A stretch of 5,125 nucleotides of DNA from a virus. Lineage: Duplodnaviria; Heunggongvirae; Uroviricota; Caudoviricetes. Made by a program: the position numbers and the translations under genes. The notes under the pieces are model-generated. The model was not told the origin of the DNA and did not search any database. It was given only the letters and a program-made list of their open reading frames with translations. The DNA lies in the IMG/VR virus record IMGVR_UViG_2698536640_000005, positions 1 to 5,125 of that record. One strand, written 5' to 3'. Positions 539-5,125 of this stretch are shown piece by piece (within the stretch, counting starts at the first letter, position 1; every line of letters begins with the position of its first letter).

Positions 539-667
539 TCAGCCGTTAGATTTTGCCGAGCTGGAAAGCGCCTGTTTAAATTCGTTGAAGCTGAGAGCTT
601 CTTCGCCGTCGGCAAGACCTTCGAAGTATTCTTCATAAGCCTTTTCCATGATTGTGTCGAAATCCAT
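539..667 (-). CDS. ydfB: Small acidic prophage protein, YdfB-like (42 aa)
   Basis: Not in the supplied ORF track (too short); found by translating the minus strand. ATG 667-665, stop TGA 541-539, product MDFDTIMEKAYEEYFEGLADGEEALSFNEFKQALSSSAKSNG. SD AGGTGA (673-678) sits 5 nt upstream. The start is 1 nt after the TGA of the upstream gene (TGAtATG), suggesting translational coupling. Size matches Qin YdfB (42 aa) by recollection. Confidence 0.45.
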   Translation of the reverse strand: MDFDTIMEKAYEEYFEGLADGEEALSFNEFKQALSSSAKSNG

Positions 668-668
668 A

Positions 669-824
669 TCACTCACCTGAGTTTCTTTCCAGCCAGCGAC
701 GGGCACCATTTTCGGTTTTAAACGTTTTGCTTTTGGTATACGTCATCGCGGTGAACGTGCCGTCCTGGTTGGGGAACACGCCACATACCAGAGATTCGCT
801 GTTGCCAAGATCGATAGTATCCAT
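669..824 (-). CDS. ydfA: DUF1391-family small protein, YdfA/YdaF-like (51 aa)
   Basis: Part of ORF 669..911; the internal ATG at 824-822 has SD GAGGT 4 nt upstream and gives MDTIDLGNSESLVCGVFPNQDGTFTAMTYTKSKTFKTENGARRWLERNSGE (51 aa), the size of Qin YdfA / Rac YdaF. The in-frame ATG at 911 (SD GAGG, 3-nt spacer) would give 80 aa, so the start is ambiguous. Confidence 0.6.
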   Translation of the reverse strand: MDTIDLGNSESLVCGVFPNQDGTFTAMTYTKSKTFKTENGARRWLERNSGE

Positions 825-1002
825 GCTGACCTCATTTCCCCTTAACGCCGGGGTAGCGGAACTAAAAACCTGCTGCGCTGTTATATAAAGTGTTCCCGCC
901 GTCATGTTCATACGCCTCGGGCTGGCTACTTAACCCCTGACCACTGCCGGGTAACTCGAAGTATTGCCTGGCGTTCTGTGGGCGGGGTGGGTTGATGAAT
1001 GA

Positions 1003-1046
1003 ACAATACCACTACTATTTAATTATGTAAATAGCAGTGCTATTAT
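1003..1046 (-). promoter_or_regulatory. Candidate leftward (PL-like) promoter with overlapping operator palindrome AATAG-N5-CTATT
   Basis: On the minus strand: -35 TTTACA (plus 1026-1031), 17-bp spacer, -10 TATTGT (plus 1003-1008). The palindrome AATAGcagtgCTATT (1030-1044) overlaps the -35; an extra half-site CTATTT is at 1015-1020. The palindrome is nearly identical to the one at 2128-2142 beside the repressor gene. Confidence 0.35.
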
Positions 1047-1055
1047 CGTGGCAAG

Positions 1056-1078
1056 AAAAAAACCACCCGAAGGTGGTT
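1056..1078 (-). terminator. Rho-independent terminator ending the repressor-antitoxin-toxin transcript
   Basis: Minus-strand RNA: 7-bp stem AACCACC / GGUGGUU with UUCG tetraloop (1061-1078), followed by UUUUUCUU (1053-1060). It lies 14 nt after the parE stop. On the plus strand the same hairpin is not followed by a U-tract, so it is unidirectional. Confidence 0.75.
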
Positions 1079-1092
1079 GTTGACAGGAAGGA

Positions 1093-1383
1093 TTAACAGG
1101 TTTTGTTTGGATACTGTCTTCGTGAGTGAACTACATTTACGATCTCGATGTTAGATGCTGTTACTCGGTAAAGTATTATGTAGTTAGGATGAGTCACTAT
1201 CTCACGAAGACTTGGAACTCTTTCGCTCGGTGGGTACAGATAAGGGTGTTCAGTAAGTGACAAAACTGATGTTTCAATGCGTATTTTTAGTCTACGTGCA
1301 GCGGGAGGGTTTTCCTTAGCAATATAGGCTACGATCTGACGTAAATCATCACGTGCAGAAGGTAGCCATAAAATGGGCAGCAT
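1093..1383 (-). CDS. parE: Type II toxin-antitoxin system toxin, RelE/ParE family
   Basis: 96-aa product with a ParE-like pattern (LPSARDDLRQIVAYIAKENPPAARRL ... YIILYRV ... IEIVNVVHSRRQYP). The start ATG overlaps the antitoxin stop (TAATG at 1381-1385), typical of TA coupling. Confidence 0.9.
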   Translation of the reverse strand: MLPILWLPSARDDLRQIVAYIAKENPPAARRLKIRIETSVLSLTEHPYLYPPSERVPSLREIVTHPNYIILYRVTASNIEIVNVVHSRRQYPNKTC

Positions 1384-1574
1384 TACTCACTCCTGTTCGT
1401 TGCAGCTAATTGAGCAATAAGGTTTTCCATTTCAGCCATTACTTCGTCATGTGGAATTGCAGGACGGGGATCTGAGAGGCTTGCTGCCACTTTGGCTCGC
1501 AACCATTCGTTATAGCTGTTTTCTTGTTCGACTGTTTCAAATTCAGAAATTATCGGGGAAAGGGCTGTACTCAT
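1383..1574 (-). CDS. paaA: Small acidic antitoxin, PaaA2-like (63 aa), partner of ParE
   Basis: 63-aa acidic protein immediately upstream of and overlapping parE. Strong SD GAGGAGG 7 nt before the ATG at 1574. Size and context match the PaaA2 antitoxin of the paaR2-paaA2-parE2 locus as I remember it; sequence identity not verified. Confidence 0.75.
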   Translation of the reverse strand: MSTALSPIISEFETVEQENSYNEWLRAKVAASLSDPRPAIPHDEVMAEMENLIAQLAATNRSE

Positions 1575-1591
1575 GTTTTGACCTCCTCAGA

Positions 1592-2092
1592 TTAGGCGCG
1601 ACGACCCTTTTGCGCAGCTAGCCATCGCGCAACGATTTCTTCAATTGATTCTTTTTTCTCCTTCATTTCCTTAAGCATTTTCTCTTTATCTTCTTTGGGG
1701 AAAGCCCTGAACGTCTGGAGCAAATCCCGCTCCATGGGGTCTATATTAAACGGAAGTTCGTTTTCCGATTGTTCCATATCTGCAGATATAGTGACAACAT
1801 TGTCCTCCCCAGACTCTTGGGGATACATCCTTACAATTTGTAACAACTCGGCCATATCTGGTCTGATTGACTCGGGAGGAACTTGCAGCAACCCTGCGAA
1901 CTTGATAACAGCCTCAAGATTTAAAGGTGTCTGACCATTTAGATAATGGCTTACAGCTCCCTGTGTCGAAAATCCCAGAATTTCTGCCGCACGCTCTTGG
2001 GTTAACCCTAGTTGATTTTTTTTCGCCGTCCAGATTTCTTTCAGTCTCTGGGCGGCTTGCAGGTCGATCTCTGACAGGGATTTTCTTTTCAT
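1592..2092 (-). CDS. paaR: CI-like prophage repressor, HTH XRE family (PaaR-like), without an S24 peptidase domain
   Basis: 166-aa product with an N-terminal XRE-type helix-turn-helix (LGLTQERAAEILGFSTQGAVSHYLNG). The C-terminal half is Lys/Glu-rich and lacks the Ser/Lys peptidase motifs of LexA/CI. It is divergent from the Cro-like gene and sits 17 nt upstream of the antitoxin start. There is no canonical SD; a candidate -10 ends 7 nt from the ATG (possible leaderless mRNA). Confidence 0.85.
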   Translation of the reverse strand: MKRKSLSEIDLQAAQRLKEIWTAKKNQLGLTQERAAEILGFSTQGAVSHYLNGQTPLNLEAVIKFAGLLQVPPESIRPDMAELLQIVRMYPQESGEDNVVTISADMEQSENELPFNIDPMERDLLQTFRAFPKEDKEKMLKEMKEKKESIEEIVARWLAAQKGRRA

Positions 2093-2099
2093 ACCTTCA

Positions 2100-2187
2100 A
2101 TTCTAATAAGATTATTAATCTCTTTGAAATAGTGATGCTATTTACTTTTAAAAATAACAATGCTATTAATGATCGTGATGACATCAC
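2100..2187. promoter_or_regulatory. Divergent switch region between repressor and Cro-like genes: operator palindromes and candidate PRM-like / PR-like promoters
   Basis: Palindrome AAATAGtgatgCTATTT (2127-2143); repeated half-site ATGCTATT (2135-2142 and 2160-2167); second palindrome GTGATGaCATCAC (2175-2187). Candidate rightward promoter: -35 TTTACT 2141-2146, 17 bp, -10 TATTAA 2164-2169. Candidate leftward promoter: -35 TTCAAA (plus 2123-2128), 17 bp, -10 TAGAAT (plus 2100-2105). Promoter hexamers are read by eye and unverified. Confidence 0.5.
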
Positions 2188-2199
2188 ATGAGGTGAACA

Positions 2200-2475
2200 A
2201 TGAATCTTGGAGAATATTTGCATCATTCCGGTATAACTCAGAAGCATTTTGCTGAAATTGTTGGGGTAACCCAAGGGATGGTAAGCCATGTCATTACCGG
2301 ACGGGCGAAACTTACGGGGGAAAAAATTTTACGCTGGTGCGAAGCAACAGGCTGGATAGTAACTCCGCACGAGATTGATAGCAGTACTTATCCCAACCCA
2401 ACCGACGGCTTACCTGTCGAGTATCAGGCTAACACACAACCAGAGGCGGGGGTGATTCATGAAAATCAAGCATGA
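2200..2475 (+). CDS. ydaS: Cro-like HTH DNA-binding protein (YdaS family)
   Basis: 91-aa product with an N-terminal HTH (GITQKHFAEIVGVTQGMVSHVITG). SD GAGGTGA 4 nt upstream. Divergent from the repressor gene; overlaps the next gene by 17 nt. Confidence 0.85.
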   Translation: MNLGEYLHHSGITQKHFAEIVGVTQGMVSHVITGRAKLTGEKILRWCEATGWIVTPHEIDSSTYPNPTDGLPVEYQANTQPEAGVIHENQA

Positions 2476-2884
2476 ACACATCCGTATGGCAATGAATGCC
2501 TGGGCGTATCCAGACGGTGAGAAAGTTCCAGCAGCTGAAATAGCCCGGACTTATTTCGAACTGGGGATGACGTTCCCGGAACTGTACGACGACAGCCATC
2601 CGGAAGCCCTGGCCCGTAATACCCAGAAAATTTTCCGTTGGCTGGATAAAGACACCCCTGATGCTGTTGAAAAAATTCAGGCTCTGTTACCGGCGATCGA
2701 AAAGGCAATGCCGCCTCTGCTGGTGGCCCGTATGCGCAGTCACAGCTCTGAATATTACCGTGAGATCGTCGAACGGAGGGATCGGCTGGTGAAAGATGTG
2801 GATGATTTTGTCGCAGCGGCGATCGCCTGGGGCACCCTGACTAACAGTGGTGGTCAGCCTGGTAATGCTGTTGTCGTGCATTGA
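2459..2884 (+). CDS. ydaT: YdaT-family protein (CII-like regulator of lambdoid cryptic prophages)
   Basis: 141-aa product, the size of Rac YdaT, immediately after the YdaS-like gene. SD GGGGGTGA 4 nt upstream. Family assignment rests on size, synteny and recollection. Confidence 0.8.
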   Translation: MKIKHEHIRMAMNAWAYPDGEKVPAAEIARTYFELGMTFPELYDDSHPEALARNTQKIFRWLDKDTPDAVEKIQALLPAIEKAMPPLLVARMRSHSSEYYREIVERRDRLVKDVDDFVAAAIAWGTLTNSGGQPGNAVVVH

Positions 2885-2952
2885 CCAACAATATTCATGC
2901 CGGATTTCTTCCGGATGTTCGAGGGTAAAGTTCGGTATCAGATGAGGTGAGT

Positions 2953-3993
2953 ATGGCTAATGCCTGGCTCAGATTGTGGCATGACATGCCAAATGATCCC
3001 AAATGGCGAACCATTGCCAGGGTCTCAGGACAGCCAATCGCAACAGTGATGGCGGTGTATATCCACCTTCTGGTGAGTGCGTCACGAAATGTCACGACAT
3101 GTCACGGCGTGTCACTACGTGGTCACATTGATGTCACGACGGAAGATTTAGCAAGTGCGCTTGATGTGACGGAAGACGTAATTGATTCAATTTTGCATGC
3201 AATGCAGGGGCGGGTTCTGGATGGTGACCTTATTTCCGGATGGGAAAAACGTCAGGTGCTGAAAGAGGACAATGGTAACGTTTCGCAAACGGCAAAATCC
3301 CCGGCAGAGCGCAAGAGAGCGCAGCGGGAGCGCGAAAAGCTGCGGAAATATGATGCTGATTGTCACGATGAGTCACGACGTGTCACGCATCCGTCACGAC
3401 AAGTCACGACAGATAAAGATACAGATACAGAATTAAACCCCACACATAACGCGCGCATGCGCGAGAGTGCTCCAACCGGTGAGTCGCATGGTGCGCCGTT
3501 GCAGACAGCCGAACCTGAATACCTGGACGGCCTGAGCGAACCGATCGGGAAATTTTCGATGACTACTGTCTGGCAGCCGTCGTCGGATTTTCGACAACGG
3601 GCAGCAGTGTGGGGTATGGCTCTGCCTGAGCCGGAATTTACACCTGCAGAGCTTGCCGCATTCCGGGATTACTGGATGGCGGAGGGGAAGGTTTTCACGC
3701 AGGTTCAGTGGGAGCAGAAATTTGCCCGCCACGTGCAGCACGTCAGGGCACAGGTAAAACCAGTCAGCAAGGGGGTAAACCATGCAGCAGCACCAGGTGG
3801 CACCGCATCACGGGCAGTTCAGGAAATTCGGGCAGCACGTGAGCAGTGGGAACGTGAAAACGGATTTATCAGCGACGGAAACGGCCTGGAAGCTGTGGGA
3901 GCTTATGGGGGAGGTGTATTCGAACCGCTGGACCCAGAAGAACGGGGCCGCACCTTCGAAGCTCTGGATTGCCCAGATTGGCGCGATGACTGA
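2953..3993 (+). CDS. Phage replication initiator / replisome organizer (lambda O-like) with a DnaT-like C-terminal region; origin iterons lie inside the gene
   Basis: Long ORF (the track starts it at GTG 2947; ATG 2953 has SD GAGG at a 5-nt spacer). The C-terminal region FTPAELAAFRDYWMAEGKVFTQVQWEQKFARHVQ resembles the DnaT-like domain of phage replication proteins. Two iteron clusters are embedded in the reading frame, as oriLambda is in gene O. The 3' 212 nt overlap the P-like ORF. Confidence 0.75.
   Translation: MANAWLRLWHDMPNDPKWRTIARVSGQPIATVMAVYIHLLVSASRNVTTCHGVSLRGHIDVTTEDLASALDVTEDVIDSILHAMQGRVLDGDLISGWEKRQVLKEDNGNVSQTAKSPAERKRAQREREKLRKYDADCHDESRRVTHPSRQVTTDKDTDTELNPTHNARMRESAPTGESHGAPLQTAEPEYLDGLSEPIGKFSMTTVWQPSSDFRQRAAVWGMALPEPEFTPAELAAFRDYWMAEGKVFTQVQWEQKFARHVQHVRAQVKPVSKGVNHAAAPGGTASRAVQEIRAAREQWERENGFISDGNGLEAVGAYGGGVFEPLDPEERGRTFEALDCPDWRDD
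3081..3140. repeat. Iteron cluster 1: six GTCAC(G) direct repeats at 10-11 bp spacing
   Basis: GTCAC starts at 3081, 3091, 3101, 3111, 3122 and 3133 (units such as tGTCACGAc), i.e. one per helical turn. Confidence 0.7.
3362..3440. repeat. Iteron cluster 2 (five GTCACG repeats at 10-11 bp spacing) plus adjacent AT-rich tract; candidate replication origin core
   Basis: GTCACG starts at 3362, 3372, 3382, 3393 and 3403, followed directly by the A-rich stretch AGATAaAGATAcAGATAcAGAATTAAA (3411-3437). Iterons followed by an AT-rich unwinding region are the classic lambdoid ori layout. Confidence 0.65.
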
Positions 3994-4447
3994 ACAGCAA
4001 ATCCGGCTGGTCTGCCGTCAGTGCATGGACCGCTGCCGGGCGGGTGAAACGTGGCCCCCGGACCTGGCTGAGTTTGTTGCACTGATTTCGGAGAGTGGGG
4101 CAAATCCATTTGGTCTTACGGTGGATGCAGTGATGGAAGAGTACCGGCGCTGGCGCAATGAATCCTGGCGATACGACGGGAGTGATAAATACCCGTGGCC
4201 ACAGCCTGTGCTGTACCACATCTGCCTCGAAATGCGTACCAGAGGGATTGAGCGCCAGATGACGCAGGGTGAGTTAAAACGACTTGCGGAACGGCAACTG
4301 ACGAAATGGGCAAAGCATGTTGGTAACGGGATGAGTGTTCCGCCAGTGCGACGACAACTGGAAGGGGCGAAACACCCGCAAGGGCCAACGCCAATTGAAC
4401 GGCTGAAACAGGAATACGAACGCCGGAAGGCAGCTGGTTTTATTTGA
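3782..4447 (+). CDS. Replication protein P-like (DnaB helicase loader)
   Basis: The C-terminal two-thirds align by eye with lambda P as I remember it (PPDLAEFVAL vs SPGQFVAWC; DKYPWPQPVLYHI vs ESYPWKSNAHYWL; QGELKRLAERQL vs DAELRRKAADEL). The start is uncertain: ATG 3782 has a good SD (AGGGGG) but overlaps the O-like ORF by 212 nt; ATG 3905 and ATG 3986 (8-nt overlap with the O stop, ATGACTGA) are alternatives. Confidence 0.7.
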   Translation: MQQHQVAPHHGQFRKFGQHVSSGNVKTDLSATETAWKLWELMGEVYSNRWTQKNGAAPSKLWIAQIGAMTEQQIRLVCRQCMDRCRAGETWPPDLAEFVALISESGANPFGLTVDAVMEEYRRWRNESWRYDGSDKYPWPQPVLYHICLEMRTRGIERQMTQGELKRLAERQLTKWAKHVGNGMSVPPVRRQLEGAKHPQGPTPIERLKQEYERRKAAGFI

Positions 4448-4480
4448 ATCTGAGAAACGATTTTGTCGGAGGAAATTTTA

Positions 4481-5125
4481 ATGGAAACCGTATTTGACGC
4501 ACTGAAAGCACTGAAAAGAGCCTCTTCACAGGTAGTGGCGGCCCGCCTTGGAATCAGCCGTGAAGATGCGGTCAACGAACTGTGGAAACTGAAGCGCCGC
4601 GGTGAAGCGGATAACAAGGGTTCGATGTGGCGGCTGATTCAGGCTGGTGAAAGTGAACCGGTGTCACCGGTACCGAAAGTGACAGCGCAAATGCTGACTG
4701 AGGCGATTGAACAACATGGCCCACAAACGGCGGATGAGCTGGCACTGATGTTCGGGATTACCTCCCGCCGGGCGAATTCATCGCTGGCCATGGCAATCAG
4801 CAAAGGGCGTCTGATTCGCGTGAATCAGGGCGGTAAATTTCGTTACTGCATACCGGGCGCTGATTTACCGGCAGAGCCGGAAGCTGCATCCGTAGCGGAA
4901 ACCGATGGTAAAGCCTTTCCTCAGCCAGCAGGTGTTGCGTTACCTGTCCGGGAAGCAGAAACACAGGAAGAAATAAAAACGGAAAGTGTGGCGGTCACAG
5001 TGCAGTCACAGCCGTCGTTCACCAGAAAACATCCGGATGGTCTGATTTTACCATCGCTGCATGTGGCTAACCGCGAGCTGCGCCGGGCAAAAGGTCAGGT
5101 TCAGAAGTGGGAGCGAGTCTGCGCC
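4481..5125 (+). CDS. Hypothetical phage protein with two winged-helix-like repeats (3'-truncated by window end)
   Basis: Not in the ORF track because no stop occurs in the window. ATG 4481 is preceded by SD GGAGG (4468-4472, 8-nt spacer), and the frame stays open for 215 codons to position 5125. Two similar segments ([15 protein letters not shown]...GSMWRL and [15 protein letters not shown]...GKFRYCI) suggest an internal duplication of a winged-helix-type module. Confidence 0.65.

Follow-up and report, generated by a model that had tools for sequence, protein, structure and literature searches.

Does a toxin-antitoxin (TA) pair that directly follows the repressor gene of a lambdoid prophage belong to the lysogeny operon, and does it serve to addict the host, to fend off other phages, or no present function at all? 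The question is raised by the 5,125-nt stretch of DNA analysed here (the window), for which the original prediction had described a repressor gene, a gene for a small acidic protein and a ParE/RelE-fold toxin gene in one orientation. The three co-oriented minus-strand genes were found exactly where it had placed them, and are followed by an intrinsic terminator:

1093..1383, minus strand: ParE-family toxin gene (96 aa, pI 9.7, basic; ParE1/CP-933M specificity class)
1383..1574, minus strand: PaaA-family antitoxin gene (63 aa, pI 4.4, no DNA-binding domain)
1592..2092, minus strand: immunity repressor gene in the PaaR position (166 aa; HTH_3 1e-9, Pfam)
1054..1078, minus strand: intrinsic terminator closing the operon (stem at 1078-1061, AACCACC-TTCG-GGTGGTT, 7 bp with a TTCG loop, plus T7)

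The operon is an unremarkable representative of the three-gene paaR-paaA-parE TA operons known from the immunity regions of lambda-like E. coli prophages, and its main departure from known members is a repressor DNA-binding domain of true lambda-CI type. Repressor, PaaA, ParE and terminator probably make up the lysogeny operon, directed leftward, of a lambdoid (Qin/Rac-like) prophage and act as an addiction module.

Anatomy of the operon

Seventeen nucleotides (1575-1591) separate the repressor stop codon from the antitoxin ATG, and base 1383 is common to the antitoxin stop and the toxin start (minus strand GAGTAATGC, that is, TAATG); both the gap and the overlap had been predicted and are present in the sequence. 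All three reading frames are intact, and the 63-aa product is indeed acidic, with 11 D+E versus 4 K+R. An SD stands 6 nt 5' of the toxin ATG (AGGAG) and another 6 nt 5' of the antitoxin ATG (GGAGG); the sequence upstream of the repressor ATG holds none. The terminator lies 14 nt past the toxin stop (folding energy -10.4 kcal/mol) and, in agreement with the claim that none precedes it, is the sole strong one there: a second candidate inside the repressor gene (1767-1751) has a 5-bp stem and was rejected as being at chance level, with three terminator-like sites found against 1.7 expected. As had also been described, the repressor gene is divergent from a Cro-like HTH gene, across 107 bp of intergenic DNA. 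A single transcript is compatible with the gene spacing, with the lack of an internal terminator and with the position of a predicted -10 element (see below).

Toxin, antitoxin and their closest relatives

Protein searches bore out the predicted identities of the two smaller products. The 96-aa product matched the Pfam family ParE_toxin (PF05016; 6.6e-18, 65.5 bits, cutoff 23) and, in the PDB, 5cw7_B, the solved ParE2 of E. coli O157:H7 (E=5.2e-36); pairwise alignment gave 88% identity with the CP-933M copy versus 65% with ParE2. The 63-aa product matched Pfam PaaA2 (PF21217; 1.1e-22, 80.2 bits, cutoff 27), NCBIfam NF050103 (3.8e-27) and PDB 3zbe (PaaA2; 5.4e-23), with pairwise identities of 83% to the CP-933M copy and 71% to PaaA2; PaaA2 and NF050103 were its only matches in Pfam and NCBIfam, and no DNA-binding domain was detected in it. 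Given the Pfam matches to ParE_toxin and PaaA2, and that of the repressor to HTH_3, the gene triad is not a chance arrangement. Purifying selection, computed against a copy with saturated synonymous sites, is apparent from pN 0.09 versus pS 0.79 for the toxin and dN/dS 0.12 for the antitoxin, and would lend indirect support to toxicity, neutralisation and stabilisation by the module. Canonical ParD-ParE systems (RK2, Vibrio cholerae ParDE2) likewise place a small acidic antitoxin gene just upstream of that for a ParE-fold toxin, but their antitoxin has its own RHH DNA-binding domain, whereas here an antitoxin of the PaaA2 family, without RHH, is accompanied by a separate protein for transcriptional control.

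The locus had been equated with paaR2-paaA2-parE2 of the cryptic prophage CP-933P. This stands for the toxin, the antitoxin and the locus, and needs qualification on two points: the CP-933M paralogue is closer (88%/83% versus 65%/71%), and the repressor is like PaaR2 only in its last ~44 residues. Among characterised relatives, the paralogue in the E. coli O157:H7 cryptic prophage CP-933M (PaaA1/ParE1; Hallez et al. 2010, as cited in PMC8630535 and PMC4803016), rather than the paaR2 locus of CP-933P, comes nearest in sequence. CP-933M likewise has three co-oriented genes with equal spacing and a ydfA/ydfB/dicB left arm, and has the antitoxin C-terminal class (…VMAEMENLIAQ…) and the repressor C-terminus in common with the window. 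DNA homology amounts to 79.8% over window positions 541-1722 and 82% over 2385-2825. The interval ~1723-2384, which comprises the repressor DNA-binding domain, OR and the N-terminal half of Cro, is without DNA homology, and the immunity specificity therefore differs from that of CP-933M, whose repressor has 133 aa versus the 166 aa, with a CI-type N-terminal domain, found here.

The paaR2-paaA2-parE2 loci of CP-933P/Sp12 and phage Evi agree with the window in architecture and in their position in the immunity region; the YdaT of Evi is 82% identical, its operator box has the same position and PaaR2, too, lacks a peptidase domain. In CP-933P, however, the C-terminus of the antitoxin and the N-terminal helices of the toxin are of the other specificity class, and neither the N-terminal domain of PaaR2 nor its GTTTAGTAA-type operators are related to their counterparts in the window. 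According to the passage in which PMC4803016 cites Hallez 2010, the two O157 paralogues do not cross-neutralise.

The repressor as a domain mosaic

The repressor gene is composed of two parts with different affinities:

1823..2092, minus strand: repressor residues 1-90, lambda-CI-type HTH DNA-binding domain
1595..1741, minus strand: repressor residues 118-166, PaaR/DicA-type C-terminal domain

Lambda CI N-terminal domain chains in the PDB match residues 2-90 (E 9e-10 to 5e-9), and this domain is 52% identical to the CI of Stx2 phages; in alignments, it showed no similarity to the N-termini of PaaR2 or the CP-933M repressor. Real CI similarity sets the repressor here apart from PaaR2, a CI analogue reported as 'lacking sequence similarity'. 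The C-terminal domain, probably an oligomerisation domain, is encoded by the 3' end of the gene and is under purifying selection. The C-terminus is 55% identical to that of PaaR2 over 44 aa, and residues 91-166 are 47% identical to the CP-933M repressor; homology to neither protein extends over the full length, and no full-length repressor match was found in the phage collection.

The C-terminus also matched the NCBIfam DicA model (positions 75-130 of 135, 1.5e-7) and phrog_5736; only these positions of the model were matched, so the N-terminal domain differs from that of DicA. The DicA/DicC region of E. coli K-12 Qin further recalls the window by its left arm, ydfA-ydfB-ydfC-dicB, and dicA and dicC are annotated at the equivalent position in related phages. 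To our knowledge, dicA and the ydfABC promoter of Qin have no TA pair between them. The repressor has no S24 peptidase domain (no PF00717 match) and ends, at 166 aa, with the PaaR/DicA-type C-terminus; since lambda CI has the S24 autocleavage domain and the repressor here does not, SOS induction via RecA cleavage is not expected, nor is it for PaaR2 (PMC8630535).

Operators, promoters and the rightward genes

The regulatory sites predicted around the operon, and the genes on its divergent side, are as follows:

2100..2128, minus strand: predicted PRM-like promoter (TTCAAA-17-TAGAAT, 9/12 match)
2128..2167, no strand assigned: predicted OR-like operator pair, AATAGTGATGCTATT (2128-2142) and AATAACAATGCTATT (2153-2167), 25 bp apart (repeat families D1, D2, I1)
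1005..1044, no strand assigned: predicted OL-like operator pair, AATACCACTACTATT (1005-1019) and AATAGCAGTGCTATT (1030-1044), 25 bp apart
2200..2475, plus strand: Cro-like HTH gene in the YdaS position (HTH_3 3.7e-6; phrog_35 transcriptional repressor, 6e-21)
2459..2884, plus strand: YdaT gene, CII functional analogue (Pfam YdaT_toxin 7.5e-11; phrog_163 CII-like activator, 3e-47)
2452..2469, no strand assigned: predicted YdaT operator box, GTGATTCATGAAAATCAA, at the cro/ydaT junction (1 mismatch to TTGATTN6AATCAA)

The 15-bp palindrome motif AATAGCAnTGCTATT occurs at four sites in the window versus 0.17 expected, a number reached in none of 200 shuffles. These four operator-like palindromes bracket the operon as the OR and OL pairs, the latter overlapping a leftward PL-like promoter (TTTACA-17-TATTGT, 1031-1003, minus strand). 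A third OR site at ~2105-2119 matched the motif at only 9/15 and is not claimed. As the promoter scan was overall at chance level (4 sites versus 3.4 expected), the PRM and PL assignments were made only by position and operator overlap. The -10 of the PRM-like promoter ends 8 nt before the SD-less repressor ATG, which suggests that the repressor mRNA is leaderless, by analogy with the leaderless paaR2 and cI mRNAs (PMC8630535).

The Cro-like product is 41% identical to its CP-933M counterpart, and YdaT is 82% identical to that of phage Evi, whose immunity genes are of the CP-933P type; the predicted YdaT box lies where Evi has a perfect box, a site that has been footprinted in CP-933P (PMC9986795). 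The Cro-like and YdaT genes, divergent from the module, confirm the lambdoid immunity-region setting, with ydfABC-dicB-exonuclease-xis-int on the left side of the prophage and O/P-type replication genes on the right. No match was obtained with Rfam over the whole window (E≤0.1), which thus contains neither DicF nor another known RNA. The GC content of the module (42-46%) is slightly lower than that of its flanks (about 50%), as is typical of immunity regions.

Linkage and distribution of the module

In 41 complete E. coli genomes, O104:H4 among them, the module is present at an identity of at least 99%. Its SDs, terminator and operators are all conserved. Repressor, PaaA and ParE are linked in all eight distinct contexts read around an identical repressor protein (P0001); the replication and left-arm genes vary among these contexts and the three-gene linkage is kept, as it is beside a 77%-identical Shigella variant of the repressor. 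By megablast, the whole window had no identical match in an E. coli complete genome: the best matches were 92.5% identical along its entire length or 97-98% identical across about 87-91% of it, and the window is therefore a mosaic of known prophage segments. The slot behind the repressor carries various cargo: ParE/PaaA here, HigBA (PD-Lambda-2-like) in Salmonella, and HipA_2/DUF3037 (PDC-M66) elsewhere.

We find it highly improbable that the genes are in decay, left over from a cryptic prophage and now without function. Points in favour are that an IS66 element truncates the prophage integrase in the full-length E. coli locus of highest similarity, that both CP-933P and CP-933M are cryptic, and that among 50,697 phage genomes searched only one record, phage Evi, which carries authentic PaaR2/PaaA2/ParE2, has a close ParE2-type toxin (65%); the second toxin match in that collection, on an unannotated 5.3-kb fecal contig, is 34% identical. 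Such decay would nonetheless have to accommodate three intact reading frames, near-identity across the 41 genomes, strong purifying selection against a copy with saturated synonymous sites, and the conserved SDs, terminator and operators.

PaaA-ParE pairs of 58-79% identity occur without any PaaR-like gene in distant Proteobacteria, and the TA pair stands alone on small plasmid-like contigs of Acetobacteraceae; the pair can thus work alone. This raises the alternative that it is an autonomous two-gene cassette here as well, transcribed from a promoter of its own within the 3' end of the repressor gene and with a spacing that marks an insertion site rather than coupling. The CP-933M DNA homology, which runs into the last ~43 repressor codons, would fit such a cassette, as would the expression of the CP-933P TA genes in both immunity states and a PaaA-ParE complex reported to repress partially by itself. 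However, the 17-nt gap is taken up by the SD and leaves no room for a promoter, the only promoter-like site in the repressor gene (1797-1768), rejected as an internal promoter, matches the consensus at 9/12, which is at chance frequency, and no terminator lies between the genes. For the homologue, an operon under repression by PaaR2 has been demonstrated, and the conservation of the repressor 3' end is explained by purifying selection on the protein domain that it encodes. An autonomous cassette is hence quite unlikely at this locus, and we retain the three-gene lysogeny operon.

Discussion

For the CP-933P homologue, the operon structure, the repression by PaaR2 and the leaderless translation are established, as are the OL/OR operators, the YdaT-activated PRE and bistability (PMC8630535). 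PaaR2, YdaS and YdaT are described as analogues of CI, Cro and CII (PMC8630535), and the TA pair reportedly stands in for rexA and rexB (PMC9986795), in agreement with the background given in the original prediction. Its further proposal, a link of toxin expression to the lysogenic state, is on weaker ground than it had claimed, since the CP-933P TA genes were transcribed in both bistable states, with toxin activation seen in neither (PMC8630535); for the same reason, control by the repressor may have little bearing on what the toxin does. Details of PaaR2 regulation, such as activation at a low repressor level and octamer looping, may not transfer to the window, because the DNA-binding domain and operators differ.

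Like cI-rexA-rexB of lambda, the operon is a leftward PRM operon between OR and OL, with the repressor first, accessory lysogen-expressed genes next and then a terminator; the N-terminal domain of CI is homologous to that of the repressor here, and the geometry here suggests a leaderless repressor mRNA. The cargo is RexAB in lambda versus a type II TA pair here, and YdaT takes the place of CII. This position (PMC9986795) could mean that the pair is mainly a lysogen-expressed anti-phage system, acting by Rex-like exclusion or abortive infection, with a superinfecting phage as the trigger of the toxin. Related prophages that share the repressor N-terminal domain carry other cargo in the slot, of which HigB/HigA matches PD-Lambda-2 A and B of PADLOC (B partially) and HipA_2 plus DUF3037 matches A and B of the candidate system PDC-M66; on the same side we counted that no addiction-independent phenotype was found for the homologue. 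Yet association with a slot is weak evidence, the toxin, antitoxin and repressor matched none of the families of PADLOC-DB v2 (E≤0.01), and a defence phenotype for PaaA/ParE was not found in the literature searched. The homologue demonstrably stabilises plasmids through post-segregational killing, and the lone TA pair on Acetobacteraceae plasmid-like contigs fits plasmid addiction. We therefore judge a mainly anti-phage system to be unlikely. It is equally doubtful that the slot behind the CI-type repressors of YdaT-type lambdoid prophages is dedicated to toxin-module cargo and that PaaA-ParE acts in it like RexAB against superinfecting phages, beyond addiction; the abortive-defence role that the original prediction had proposed for PaaA-ParE is pure conjecture.

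Addiction or stabilisation is the best-supported function. In the scheme that we favour, which builds on the gene identities, domain architecture, spacing, terminator, operator repeats, conservation and purifying selection observed here, the repressor would probably bind the 15-bp palindromes at OR and OL, thereby shutting off the rightward Cro-like/YdaT operon and the leftward ydfABC-dicB operon, and would regulate its own PRM-like promoter, probably yielding a leaderless mRNA. PaaA and ParE would be co-transcribed behind the repressor and translationally coupled, and PaaA, without a DNA-binding domain, would wrap round and neutralise ParE, a toxin whose homologue is an inducer of the SOS response. 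On loss of the region, the labile antitoxin would decay and the toxin would kill the cell, which would leave the host addicted to this part of the prophage. The single transcript, leaderless translation, repressor-operator binding, toxicity, antitoxin lability and addiction are in this scheme those expected from the CP-933P and CP-933M homologues; toxicity, cognate neutralisation and a protease-labile antitoxin have been shown for the CP-933P homologue only, which also stabilises mini-F and causes post-segregational killing (PMC8630535).

Overall, these results mostly confirm known biology, as the three-component design, the CI/Cro/CII-like wiring, the addiction phenotype and the rexAB replacement have been published for CP-933P; addiction ranks as the best-supported role, and one in phage defence has a low probability. 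Capture of a mobile cassette is supported by the TA pairs that exist without the regulator in distant Proteobacteria. The module is present in pathogenic lineages such as O104:H4, where its genes bear only generic RefSeq names. The variant described here ties the PaaR family to lambda CI through real sequence homology of the DNA-binding domain, and its breakpoints (~1723-2384) show that immunity specificity is swappable while the TA pair and the repressor C-terminal domain are retained, which qualifies the published idea that the TA genes guard the immunity region against recombination.

Organization of the proposed operon

The three co-oriented minus-strand ORFs of the immunity region were found exactly where the original prediction had placed them, and the repressor gene is indeed divergent from an HTH Cro-like gene (2200-2475), from which 107 bp separate it. 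The module comprises:

1592-2092, minus strand: repressor gene, 166 aa
1383-1574, minus strand: antitoxin gene, 63 aa
1093-1383, minus strand: toxin gene, 96 aa
1078-1061, minus strand: terminator hairpin AACCACC-TTCG-GGTGGTT followed by a T7 tract, -10.4 kcal/mol, 14 nt past the toxin stop

Both the 17-nt gap that separates repressor stop from antitoxin start (1575-1591) and the TAATG overlap, in which antitoxin stop and toxin start have base 1383 in common, are present in the sequence. As had been claimed, a terminator comes only after the toxin gene, the 1078-1061 hairpin being the sole convincing one; a 5-bp terminator-like site within the repressor gene was discarded, its frequency being at chance level. 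The antitoxin is acidic (pI 4.4) and the toxin basic (pI 9.7), and each is preceded, 6 nt upstream of its ATG, by a Shine-Dalgarno sequence (GGAGG and AGGAG, respectively).

Identity of the toxin and antitoxin

The toxin matches Pfam ParE_toxin (6.6e-18) and, among solved structures, comes closest to ParE2 of E. coli O157:H7 (5cw7_B, E=5.2e-36); the antitoxin matches Pfam PaaA2 (1.1e-22), NCBIfam NF050103 (3.8e-27) and the PaaA2 structure 3zbe (E=5.4e-23). In PHROGs v4 both products of window 1093-1574 are labeled "unknown function" (toxin, phrog_2455, 2e-31; antitoxin, phrog_3936, 5e-41), which is an annotation gap, as solved structures and published functions exist for both.

For direct comparison we used both O157-type copies. 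Phage Evi (LR597642) encodes authentic PaaR2, PaaA2 and ParE2, its PaaR2 starting with MQKKE as sequenced in PMC8630535. An O157:H7 chromosome carries a different module, whose repressor starts with MMSALE, not MQKKE, and which we take to be the CP-933M homologue mentioned in that paper. The proposed match to paaR2-paaA2-parE2 of the cryptic prophage CP-933P holds for the toxin (65% identity to the phage Evi copy) and the antitoxin (71%), while the repressor is alike only in its C-terminal part; identities to the CP-933M copy are 88% and 83% for toxin and antitoxin, respectively. In its C-terminus (…VMAEMENLIAQLAATN…) the antitoxin follows the CP-933M class. As summarized in a review (PMC4803016, citing Hallez et al. 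2010), PaaA1 fails to neutralise ParE2 and the reverse pairing fails as well, which makes PaaA1/ParE1 the probable specificity class of the window pair.

A mosaic repressor

Residues 2-90 of the repressor align with the N-terminal domain of lambda CI (PDB 1lmb, 7jvt and others; E about 1e-9) and share 52% identity with CI proteins of Stx2-converting phages. Further along, there is 55% identity between residues ~118-166 and the PaaR2 C-terminus and 47% between residues 91-166 and the CP-933M repressor, and this region also fits the C-terminal part of the NCBIfam DicA model. The window protein gave no alignment to the N-terminal half of either PaaR2 or the CP-933M repressor. The repressor is a mosaic of a CI-type N-terminal and a PaaR/DicA-type C-terminal domain. 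PaaR2 was called a CI analogue "despite lacking sequence similarity" (PMC8630535), whereas the window repressor has real similarity to CI. A domain search detected no S24 peptidase domain, and RecA-dependent autocleavage would, as reported for PaaR2, not be expected.

Evolution of the module

DNA homology to the CP-933M module extends over window 541-1722 (79.8%) and 2385-2825 (82%) and is absent from ~1723-2384. [quoted passage not shown] Purifying selection acts on each of the three genes: compared with its CP-933M counterpart, the toxin has pN 0.09 and pS 0.79, so that synonymous sites are saturated; the antitoxin has dN/dS 0.12; and the last 50 repressor codons show pN 0.15 versus pS 0.98.

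PaaA-ParE pairs also occur in Komagataeibacter, Acetobacter, Paracoccus, Sphingomonas and proteobacterial MAGs (toxin 58-72%, antitoxin 60-79% identity), in settings which, from raw ORF translations only, resemble small plasmid-like contigs or unrelated chromosomal neighbourhoods. No PaaR C-terminal domain was found by tblastn in these distant loci, and both antitoxin C-terminal classes are represented among them, which supports the published suggestion (PMC8630535) of an insertion of a mobile two-gene TA into the immunity operon. In the stand-alone pairs of Acetobacteraceae, Paracoccus, Sphingomonas and proteobacterial MAGs (L016-L020 and L022), the antitoxins measure 62-66 aa and have no DNA-binding domain.

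Candidate operators and promoters

A 15-bp palindrome-like motif, AATAGCAnTGCTATT, occurs at four sites versus 0.17 expected, a number reached in 0 of 200 shuffles. The candidate control elements are:

2128-2142 and 2153-2167: AATAGCAnTGCTATT pair in the repressor/cro intergenic region, 25-bp spacing
1005-1019 and 1030-1044: AATAGCAnTGCTATT pair just past the terminator, 25-bp spacing
2128-2100, minus strand: PRM-like promoter TTCAAA-17-TAGAAT, adjoining the first OR site
1031-1003, minus strand: PL-like promoter TTTACA-17-TATTGT, overlapping the OL pair and directed at ydfA/ydfB/ydfC
2452-2469: putative YdaT operator at the cro/ydaT junction, one mismatch to TTGATTN6AATCAA

The 40-bp blocks holding the two pairs are mutually inverted copies (repeat I1), consistent with an OR/OL arrangement of candidate operators. 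Promoter-like sites as a class were not above chance, so the PRM and PL assignments are drawn from position. Inspection of the sequence upstream of the repressor ATG revealed no usable Shine-Dalgarno, and the PRM-like -10 ends 8 nt ahead of this ATG, a geometry that would give a leaderless mRNA, as demonstrated experimentally for cI and paaR2 (PMC8630535). YdaT, the CII analogue, is 82% identical to that of phage Evi, which has CP-933P-type immunity genes and a perfect site for the footprinted operator (PMC9986795) at the same cro/ydaT junction.

Prophage context and distribution

The left flank carries ydfA (DUF1391), ydfB and ydfC, followed further left, in the best E. coli match, by dicB, exonuclease, xis and int; the right flank encodes a DnaT-domain O-like initiator, a P-like helicase loader and DUF1627. 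These flanks are of the lambdoid prophage type. Between the OL/PL region and the left end of the window, the small minus-strand genes at 539-709 and 291-509 correspond to two Qin-type prophage genes of unknown function, ydfB (phrog_2061) and ydfC (phrog_1744); at 56 and 80 aa, the mechanical ORFs of ydfB and ydfA exceed their RefSeq annotations of 42 and 51 aa. Within the initiator gene (2947-3993), eight iteron-like copies of TGTCACGAC (at most one mismatch; 0.98 expected, 0 of 200 shuffles reaching eight) form two clusters, at 3090-3140 and 3361-3410, probably the prophage replication origin, as in the lambda O gene. The helicase loader was called mechanically as 3782-4447; RefSeq starts the homologous gene at the ATG equivalent to 3990, in an ATGA overlap with the O-like stop, and 3990-4447 is probably the true extent of the gene.

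The window, too, is a mosaic: E. coli CP046539 is 97.9% identical over 681-5125 and only 79% over 1-230, with 231-680 unaligned, phage Evi is 95-96% identical to 1-509, and none of the complete E. coli genomes exceeds 92.5% identity across the full window. Among 5,426 complete E. coli genomes, window 1040-2200 occurs at no less than 99% identity in 41, the O104:H4 outbreak lineage being represented, and with at least 80% coverage in about 70; some homologue of 1093-2092, mostly O157-type, is present in 842. In an assembly collection, about 5,000 blocks index the identical repressor protein. Eight distinct contexts were read, and in all of them PaaA2-family and ParE-family genes come after the repressor; what differs between them is the left arm and the type of replication genes (DnaT/P-type or HTH_36/IstB-type). 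The trio recurs in Shigella sonnei with a repressor variant of 77% identity.

Probable function of the module

In CP-933P, PaaR2 represses the operon and competes with YdaS, the Cro analogue, at shared operators, producing bistability, and YdaT activates the PRE promoter; the antitoxin is ClpAP/ClpXP-labile, the toxin induces SOS, and the homologue stabilises an unstable mini-F plasmid (PMC8630535). The proposal that toxin expression is tied to the lysogenic state has to be tempered, since in CP-933P both states showed transcription of the TA genes and neither showed toxin activation (PMC8630535).

A defence role, also proposed, gained no direct support, PADLOC being negative for the module proteins, and some circumstantial weight from the downstream slot. 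Behind related repressors this slot holds HigB/HigA in Salmonella diarizonae (matching PADLOC PD-Lambda-2 A and, partially, B), a HipA_2 kinase with DUF3037 (behind a 244-aa double-HTH repressor; candidate system PDC-M66 A/B) a 178-aa gene of unknown kind, or no toxin at all. The HipA_2/DUF3037 and HigB/HigA cases (loci L023, 3001-5360, and L004, 4001-5339) belong to repressors that share the CI-type N-terminal domain of the window repressor. On balance, we regard a Rex-like defence role for the repressor-coupled TA slot as improbable.

Overall, the observation is real and the identification correct, and the underlying biology is already published. The trio is a new, uncharacterised paaR-paaA-parE member that stands out by a DNA-binding domain of CI type and an operator set of its own, and it most likely acts by the same mechanism as the CP-933P homologue with a different immunity specificity.
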